From the IMG/VR virus record IMGVR_UViG_2713896897_000010, positions 1-32,599 of that record: DNA of 32,599 bases. One strand, 5' to 3'. Below are positions 1-1,236 of the stretch, piece after piece. A model generated the notes under the pieces. That model saw only the letters and a list, made by a program, of their open reading frames with translations, searched no databases and was not told the origin of the DNA. A program made the translations under genes and the position numbers. Position 1 is the stretch's first letter. Each line of letters begins with the position of its first letter. This DNA is from a virus. Its lineage: Duplodnaviria; Heunggongvirae; Uroviricota; Caudoviricetes.

Positions 1-930
1 CTACGATAACCGCGCATTCAACATGGCTACCTGTTCGTCGTTCATGTCATCAATCCACATACCGTAAATTTCATACACCATCTGCGCAGTTTCATGCCCC
101 ATCTGGCTGGCTATAAATGCCGGGTTCGCTCCTGCCGTCAACAGCCAACAGGCAAAAGTATGTCGCGTATGGTACGGATTACGGCGGCGAATACCAGCAC
201 GTTTTACTGCTGCATTCCATCTCGCCCCCAAACTGCTTACCGAGTAATAAGGTTTTTGTTTTCCGTTACACATCCTGGGCATGAAAACAAAATGCAGTTT
301 TTGCTTTTCGGTTCTGCCATACTCCCGATGATAAAAGGTGATTTCGCTTTTGCGATAATGTCCGGTCAGTTTGTATTGCTCCTTCAGTGCTTCAAGAGCA
401 GGCTGCAGTAATGTTACCGTTCGGATCCCGGCATTTGTTTTTGGAGGACCGAACATATCAAGTATCGTCAGGTTTCTTCTGACATTCACAATTCCCTTCT
501 CGAAATCCACATCCTCCCACGCCAGGGCTGCCAGTTCCCCGTGACGAAGCCCGGAGTAAACAGCAAATTTCCACAAGTTTTGACTCTGTCCTTTTTCTCT
601 TTCCATTAATGCATTGAATTCTGTTTTAGATAACGGATCAGGCTTTATTCTGTTTCGCTGTAATTTTTTTACTCCTTCAAATGGTTTGGTTGATATAAAT
701 CCCGACTGATACGCAAAACGTAACAACGAACATAGCAGGGCGATATAGTTATCAACTGTGCGCACGGTTCTTCCTTTTTTGTTGACTCTTGGATTATCCT
801 GGTAAAGCGTTTCTCCATGCAGCAGTTCATTTCGGTAGCTTAAGATATCGCTATAACGAATATGTGATATTGGGGTACTCTCGCAAATGATTATCCTGAG
901 GGTTTTTAATTGTGATTTTGTTTTCTTCAT
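1..930 (-). CDS. intR: Tyrosine recombinase (phage integrase), catalytic C-terminal portion; window begins at its stop codon
   Basis: 309-aa ORF with integrase catalytic motifs (HTRHTFACWLLTAGANPAFIASQMGHE...Y); revcomp of nt 1-3 is TAG stop; in frame with the upstream arm-binding ORF across a TAG at 946-948. Confidence 0.8.
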   Translation of the reverse strand: MKKTKSQLKTLRIIICESTPISHIRYSDILSYRNELLHGETLYQDNPRVNKKGRTVRTVDNYIALLCSLLRFAYQSGFISTKPFEGVKKLQRNRIKPDPLSKTEFNALMEREKGQSQNLWKFAVYSGLRHGELAALAWEDVDFEKGIVNVRRNLTILDMFGPPKTNAGIRTVTLLQPALEALKEQYKLTGHYRKSEITFYHREYGRTEKQKLHFVFMPRMCNGKQKPYYSVSSLGARWNAAVKRAGIRRRNPYHTRHTFACWLLTAGANPAFIASQMGHETAQMVYEIYGMWIDDMNDEQVAMLNARLS

Positions 931-945
931 TGTGTTTGTTGTTAA

Positions 946-1236
946 CTATGTTTCTTTAATTTTTGTCCAGATATCACAAAGCTCTCCGAATGTTTTTATG
1001 ACCCTCGTTGTCACCATTTTTGCCCCGGTGTTGGACTGGGGAAAACGTCTTAAATACTCGAACTCGCCGGAATTTATTTCGTGAACTATCAATGCTCTTA
1101 AACTCCCGGCCTTTTTAATGTTACTGTTAGTAACCTCCCAGCCTTTCAATGTTTCCCGACATCGTTTCCCTCGAAACATGAACCAGATGCGAATGTATTT
1201 ACCTCGAATCTCGACACCTGTTGGTAATTTAGACAT
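946..1236 (-). CDS. intR: Integrase N-terminal arm-type DNA-binding domain fragment, separated from the catalytic ORF by an in-frame amber codon
   Basis: 96-aa ORF (MSKLPTGVEIRGKYIRIWFMFRGKRCRETLKGW...) resembles lambda-type Int N-terminal domain; ends at TAG 946-948, then 5 in-frame codons (L T T N T) precede ATG at 930. Confidence 0.6.
   Translation of the reverse strand: MSKLPTGVEIRGKYIRIWFMFRGKRCRETLKGWEVTNSNIKKAGSLRALIVHEINSGEFEYLRRFPQSNTGAKMVTTRVIKTFGELCDIWTKIKET

Follow-up and report, generated by a model that had tools for sequence, protein, structure and literature searches.

The window analysed here is a stretch of 32,599 nucleotides (nt) from the IMG/VR record IMGVR_UViG_2713896897_000010, and it corresponds to contig BBVG01000005.1 (GCA_001514595.1) from the stop codon of an integrase gene to 2 nt before the contig end. 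This gene, the intR of a Rac-type prophage, lies on the minus strand at 1..1236 and is split into two open reading frames (ORFs) by an in-frame amber codon. The N-terminal ORF starts with the ATG at 1236..1234, runs for 96 codons and ends at the TAG at 948..946. Five codons follow in the same frame (TTA ACA ACA AAC ACA, for L T T N T), after which the second ORF starts with the ATG at 930..928, runs for 309 codons and ends at the natural TAG stop at 3..1. Read in one frame, 1236..1 thus comprises 411 codons, one of which is an internal stop. An earlier note, made from the letters of this DNA alone, had described the two ORFs, their spacing and their shared frame, and had estimated a read-through product of about 411 amino acids (aa); this description matches the sequence base for base, and the estimated length is that of the single-frame translation.

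Both halves of a tyrosine recombinase are recognizable in the two ORFs. Residues 5-69 of the 96-codon ORF match the Pfam family Arm-DNA-bind_2 (PF12167, E-value 2.5e-27), and residues 103-289 of the 309-codon ORF match Phage_integrase (PF00589, E-value 6.4e-23), with a catalytic domain that carries the conserved R-K-HxxR-H/W-Y set of this family. The whole 1236 nt align without gaps to intact E. coli intR at 96.5% nucleotide identity, and the sole disruptive difference from the intact 411-codon gene is a G to T change at window position 948, on the coding strand, which replaces the GAG (Glu) of codon 97 by TAG (946..948, minus strand). Since the alignment is gapless and a single base is disruptive, the ORF pair is no chance juxtaposition. 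The apparent start of the second ORF was set by the ORF finder at internal codon 103 (928..930, minus strand), which is not a conserved start: Met occupies this position in 15 of 57 aligned homologues and Leu in 24. Judged from this alignment, the ATG at 930 is an incidental internal codon.

Comparison with relatives revealed what codon 97 normally encodes. Eleven intact genome loci (70-97% identical) were compared, representing E. coli, Shigella, E. ruysiae, Erwinia, Enterobacter, Citrobacter and two metagenome-assembled genomes. Each encodes the integrase in an uninterrupted frame of 411-412 codons whose codon 97 reads GAG or GAA, and GAG is found in 119 of the 119 IMG/VR loci carrying the surrounding 50-mer. 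Homologues of 407-428 aa with both Pfam domains make up almost all of the 120 best matches in a collection of 5.8 billion proteins; among the 57 aligned sequences, which were drawn from these, 48 have E at position 97, eight have D and one has T. Scans of IMG/VR and of the JGI metagenomes gave no exact match to the TAG allele, the 61-nt stretch is not matched exactly by any of the 1833 complete E. coli genomes in which it occurs, and an in-frame stop at this codon is present in 0 of the 119 IMG/VR loci, 0 of the 11 genome loci and 0 of the 57 family proteins. The earlier note had proposed comparing this codon among homologues, and had allowed that the two ORFs might normally be separate genes; the comparison gave a Glu codon in the intact genes and a single gene in all intact homologues examined. 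Of the two explanations it had offered, a nonsense-mutated pseudogene is borne out by these single ORFs with a Glu codon and by the nearest relative, which is essentially one base away, whereas amber suppression, discussed below, is not.

Several short proteins were considered as possible natural counterparts of the two fragments. The homologues P0068, P0117 and P0132, of 307-310 aa, are not supported as naturally short integrases starting at Met103: P0117 is truncated by the end of its contig, the DNA upstream of the remnant P0132 is unrelated, and the first ~17 residues of P0068 are unrelated to IntR. Likewise, the 96-aa E. coli protein P0009 was rejected as a second amber allele of Glu97, as its contigs end after codon 96. 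The contigs of two unrelated E. coli draft assemblies (L207 and L208) stop at the same point after intR codon 96, mimicking a 96-aa product.

The mutation seems to be young. Over window positions 1-1500, the closest relative, the IMG/VR locus L156, differs at two positions only, 948 and 952, and carries GAG at codon 97. The change at 952 (minus strand) is a synonymous substitution in codon 95, GAG to GAA, which none of the five closest relatives shares. It lies 4 nt from the nonsense change, and this clustering suggests that both arose in one multi-nucleotide mutation event or by micro-conversion. All 71 residues invariant among the 57 homologues are kept, including R231, K266, R358, H381 and Y391; R358 and H359 are also among the retained invariant catalytic residues. 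The ratio of nonsynonymous to synonymous substitution rates (dN/dS) is 0.07-0.08 against intact alleles and 0.02-0.04 among intact pairs. Such values indicate that purifying selection was acting while the divergence, for the most part, accumulated and, since the gene is otherwise undamaged, that there has been little time for decay.

The changed base could also be an error of sequencing or assembly, in which case the true codon 97 would be GAG and the integrase intact. The source is a draft assembly, with the window ending 2 nt from a contig end; the change concerns a single base and has a second private change 4 nt off, so that the local cluster could be an artefact; and another lesion of this prophage, in the tape-measure gene described below, is a homopolymer length difference, a typical kind of sequencing error. 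Consensus substitution errors are, on the other hand, rare at non-repetitive positions. Furthermore, the Logan assembly of the ENA read set ERR162681 is 100% identical over 4588 nt and contains the same TAG, which argues against a consensus error, and the DDBJ prefix of the genome assembly, compared with the ENA origin of the reads, suggests independent sequencing. We therefore regard an error at this position as highly improbable.

To place the stop within the protein fold, domain boundaries were taken from a structural model, since the sequence search of solved structures aligned the catalytic half only. The model used was the AlphaFold prediction for the full-length homologue P0017 (96% identical), built with the 57-sequence alignment and having a predicted local distance difference test score (pLDDT) of 87.8; a single-sequence prediction for the 309-aa ORF, with a pLDDT of 34, was not used. 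In the P0017 model, an arm-binding domain composed of a three-stranded sheet (residues 8-29) and a helix (37-56) is followed by a low-confidence linker (~75-82), a core-binding domain of four helices (83-94, 100-117, 128-140 and 158-177) and a catalytic domain (204-411). Foldseek matched this fold to full-length lambda Int (1Z1G, 1Z1B), to lambda Int 75-356, to Tn1549 Int 82-397, and also to XerA and Cre. Codon 97 is predicted to fall in the loop between the core-binding helices 83-94 and 100-117. The earlier note had placed the stop between the arm-binding and catalytic domains; this holds for their linear order, but structurally the break would lie inside the core-binding domain. The N-terminal fragment (949..1236, minus strand; 96 aa) would thus consist of the arm-type DNA-binding domain, the linker and the first core-binding helix, and the C-terminal ORF (4..930, minus strand; 309 codons) would encode the remainder of the core-binding domain and the whole catalytic domain. 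A split at this point leaves an orphan helix on the N-fragment and a C-fragment deprived of it, so that neither corresponds to a clean domain. All three domains of a heterobivalent, lambda-type integrase are therefore encoded, but the TAG at codon 97 prevents their production as a single polypeptide; by its sequence, the gene is a member of the heterobivalent family by descent and not a functional one.

The position of the stop also bears on translation. The stop codon of xisR, the excisionase gene that precedes intR, overlaps the int start (TAATATG), and this native start has no Shine-Dalgarno pairing (free energy, dG, -0.9). Pairing is also lacking before the ATG at 930, where the duplex dG is +1.0 kcal/mol, compared with -6 to -12 for most genes of the window. 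We propose that a single recent G to T transversion converted the conserved Glu97 codon from GAG to TAG, so that xisR-coupled translation of int would end after 96 residues and release a peptide comprising the arm-binding domain, the linker and the first core-binding helix only. The 309 codons downstream have no ribosome-binding site, so that the one route to their expression would be inefficient termination-reinitiation at Met103, which lies 15 nt after the stop, and their product would be devoid of the arm-binding domain and of part of the core-binding domain. In a heterobivalent integrase, arm sites and core sites must be bridged by one polypeptide; recombination between attL and attR would then not be expected from either fragment or from both together, and self-excision by means of the element's own integrase would be lost. 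For lambda Int, indeed, the C-terminal part alone cannot recombine, and N- and C-terminal parts mixed as separate polypeptides give no recombination unless engineered (PMC9791396). By analogy, the strain would be unable to excise the element with its own integrase.

It can be asked whether both fragments are instead made and functional, either as a two-piece integrase or with the 96-aa peptide binding Rac-type arm sites as a regulator or inhibitor of the integration or excision of related phages. The gap between the stop and the next ATG is only 15 nt, a spacing across which bacterial ribosomes can reinitiate, and the native int start is likewise dependent on coupling in place of a Shine-Dalgarno sequence. 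However, the unmodified halves of lambda Int were inactive when separate, activity having required the E174K substitution and a transplanted peptide (PMC9791396). In addition, the predicted break inside the core-binding domain would divide a four-helix bundle between the two pieces, and the allele is limited to one lineage and very young, so that there is no evidence of its selective maintenance. Functional fragments are accordingly very unlikely. Slightly less probable still is the more specific form of this idea, in which the split is tolerated or exploited and the 96-aa peptide, possibly together with a reinitiated 309-aa fragment, acts on Rac-type att sites. If true, the prophage would, for example, be locked in place or the integration of incoming Rac-like phages hindered, and the locus would encode a natural two-piece or dominant-negative integrase.

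The second explanation of the earlier note, that the amber is decoded by suppression or programmed read-through and full-length IntR made, possibly at a regulated low level, finds some favour in the downstream ORF, which is in frame and undamaged with 71 of 71 invariant residues, and in the fact that an integrase is required in small amounts only. It is opposed by the lack of conservation of the stop in any relative and by the absence of tRNA genes from the 32.6-kb window. Furthermore, intR itself at its natural stop and three other genes, among the 34 of the window, end in TAG, and an efficient suppressor would therefore lengthen these products too. No element stimulating read-through was seen, although no search was aimed at one. 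The base directly after the premature TAG is T, a context that Poole, Brown and Tate reportedly found in 1995 to be the most efficiently terminated in E. coli. Suppression is thus unlikely, and we consider the production of full-length IntR by this route, whether through a suppressor or programmed, to be the least probable of the explanations weighed here. There is no sign of recoding or of a new mechanism; this is an ordinary pseudogene.

Collectively, these data make it very probable that the split gene is a recent nonsense pseudogene of a Rac-type intR, in an E. albertii prophage that is decaying or being domesticated and has at least three lesions, this one included, with self-excision presumably lost. 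Some points weigh against this. The absence of secondary decay in intR would be expected as well if the gene were still used, and ERR162681 may derive from the same strain as the assembled genome. The right end of the prophage, with attR, lies beyond the contig end. Finally, the genome may elsewhere encode an amber-suppressor tRNA of the host, or another Rac-type integrase able to act in trans.

The assignment to Rac rests on the integrase and its surroundings. Among complete E. coli genomes, 1826 match the first 1.5 kb of the window through the intR and xisR of their Rac prophage, at up to 96.5% identity, and in these genomes intR is a single 1236-nt gene beside ttcA. The neighbouring xisR (1238..1453, minus strand) is intact and encodes a 71-aa excisionase (PF06806/DUF1233, E-value 7e-21; its E. 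coli homologues are annotated xisR). The excisionase function of XisR/YdaQ has been demonstrated, and the excision of Rac involves XisR and an attL located in ttcA (PMC4632033). Here, ttcA lies 51 nt beyond the int stop, and a 26-nt Rac att core, with two mismatches to K-12, lies in its 5' end, 76-101 nt past that stop. This position agrees with the published Rac attL (PMC4632033) and with the attP annotated in phage Rac-SA53. The other att site was sought by its Rac att core within the window and not found, as expected for a window that ends inside the gpJ gene. In its identity, its xisR neighbour and its insertion at ttcA, the gene is thus an orthologue of Rac IntR, lacking only the uninterrupted ORF of ~411 codons.

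The host was identified from the chromosomal flank. The region from ttcA to dbpA (compared at L003 10931-14000) shares 99.4% identity with the type strain of E. albertii, against only 80-89% with the corresponding loci of E. coli, Shigella and E. ruysiae, which designates E. albertii as the host. The presence of so similar an int-xis module in this host indicates horizontal movement, with Rac-type prophages exchanged among species through the conserved insertion site in ttcA. In the draft genome of the type strain, E. albertii NBRC 107761, segments corresponding to the 3' end of a Rac-type int were also noted, namely ~260 nt at L018 3001-3240, adjoining ttcA, and ~140 nt at L020 2739-2879. Both contigs run ~3 kb further upstream, so these segments are remnants and not cuts made by contig ends. 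They look like an older, more degraded remnant at the same site.

The remainder of the prophage, whose gene order was established from PHROG and Pfam scans, shows two further lesions. On the minus strand, int and xis are followed by DUF1187, lar/ralR, recT and recE. The plus strand carries DUF551, hok, ninB-like, ybcO, Q, holin, endolysin, Rz/Rz1 and ParB-like genes and then those for terminase, portal, head, connector and tail up to gpJ. No repressor, cro or replication genes (O-like, P-like) were found between recE and the nin region. Comparison with L156 locates the left edge of a deletion at 5489..5821: the two sequences are 99.6% identical over window positions 1-5821, similarity ends at ~5821, and L156 continues with racC-like, kil, sieB, repressor, cro-like, cII-like, O-like and DnaC-like genes. 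Thus kil, sieB, the repressor, cro, cII and the O-like and DnaC-like genes would have been removed. In agreement with this, the recE-hok interval measures ~10.7 kb in Rac-SA53 versus 1.3 kb in the window. The DUF551 ORF (5705-6328), which spans the junction at ~5821, looks like a chimera made by the deletion. Another relative, L117 (IMGVR_UViG_2724679236_000014), has an intact int and matches window positions 1-1939, 6861-9152 and 9385-18440. Only ~430 nt separate the first two of these blocks, so that ralR, recT and recE are missing and L117 represents a different deletion in the same prophage lineage.

The other lesion is a -1 frameshift in the tape-measure gene, where the window has an A6 run (27034..27039, plus strand) at the place of the A7 run of the intact 1069-aa gene of E. 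coli MEI003. The two resulting ORFs, 24819-27050 and 27089-28024, match PHROG tape-measure profiles at consecutive positions. Either the A6 run reflects a genuine mutation or the draft assembly has a homopolymer error at this place. With the loss of immunity and replication genes, the tape-measure frameshift and the integrase nonsense mutation, the element has the features of a defective (cryptic) lambdoid prophage and, as far as its gene content tells, is defective as a phage independently of the intR lesion. The gpJ gene starts at ~30400 and runs off the contig end, the window ending at 32599. Since E. coli genomes contain a median of three copies of gene J, and up to 14, the contig break inside gpJ is probably a repeat-induced assembly break, which leaves the right end of the prophage and attR unavailable.

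Some other features of the element were recorded. A small toxin ORF of the hok/mok type (6818-7030; Pfam HOK_GEF, from the source annotation) has been kept beside the deletion junction. The longest ORF for the large terminase (14098-16416, 772 aa) shows terminase homology from residue 366 only, and the small-terminase ORF (13059-14126, 355 aa) overlaps it. Between the lysis and packaging genes, the region 11155-12868 encodes a ParB-like nuclease or partition protein and a phrog_842 protein, annotated as a glucosyltransferase, and resembles a moron-like insert.

The locus is a pseudogene of Rac IntR, a well-known integrase, that arose by point mutation within a cryptic lambdoid prophage, and its wider significance is small. 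For annotation, both ORFs should be merged as one intR pseudogene and not kept as two genes. The chromosome of this strain probably retains the Rac-like element permanently at ttcA; if so, its recET, ralR/lar, hok, lysis and tail cargo would be stably inherited, along with the prophage-altered 5' end of ttcA. As a near-identical relative keeps both an intact integrase and a complete early region, the locus offers a clean, dated snapshot of prophage domestication.

Compared with known systems, the window integrase is closest to the 411-aa IntR of E. coli Rac, which works with XisR/YdaQ and to which it is ~97% identical in amino acid sequence when read through. The two elements share the order xisR, DUF1187/ydaC, ralR, recT, recE, the insertion in the 5' end of ttcA and the type of 26-bp att core. 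They differ in codon 97, GAG in E. coli Rac and TAG here, and in host, E. coli versus E. albertii. Moreover, K-12 Rac is devoid of head and tail genes, which the window prophage has, whereas the racR-type repressor and the replication region kept in K-12 Rac and Rac-SA53 are absent from it. With lambda Int (PDB 1Z1G, 1Z1B, 1Z19) the window integrase shares the arm-binding, core-binding and catalytic architecture: the full-length fold match covers ~400 columns (E-value 1e-11) and the R-K-H-R-H-Y set is present, though sequence identity is only 14-16%, the arm domain is of the PF12167 and not the lambda type, and the window polypeptide is interrupted. In the engineered binary lambda Int (Williams, Voziyanova and Voziyanov 2022, PMC9791396), the arm-binding and catalytic parts are likewise separate polypeptides. 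That protein is split at a domain boundary (residue 64) and needs E174K and a transplanted peptide, whereas the break in the window integrase would fall within the core-binding domain and is not accompanied by a compensating change. Inactivated intR alleles also occur in E. coli and Shigella. In E. coli F2_407_2_2 (NZ_CP074756.1) intR is annotated as interrupted by IS903B, and in E. coli ECMA0423 and S. flexneri SFBU1023 (L014/L015 3171-3938) its nucleotides 171-594 are replaced by a 768-nt, IS1-sized segment. These other alleles are thus insertions or deletions, while that of the window is a point nonsense mutation.
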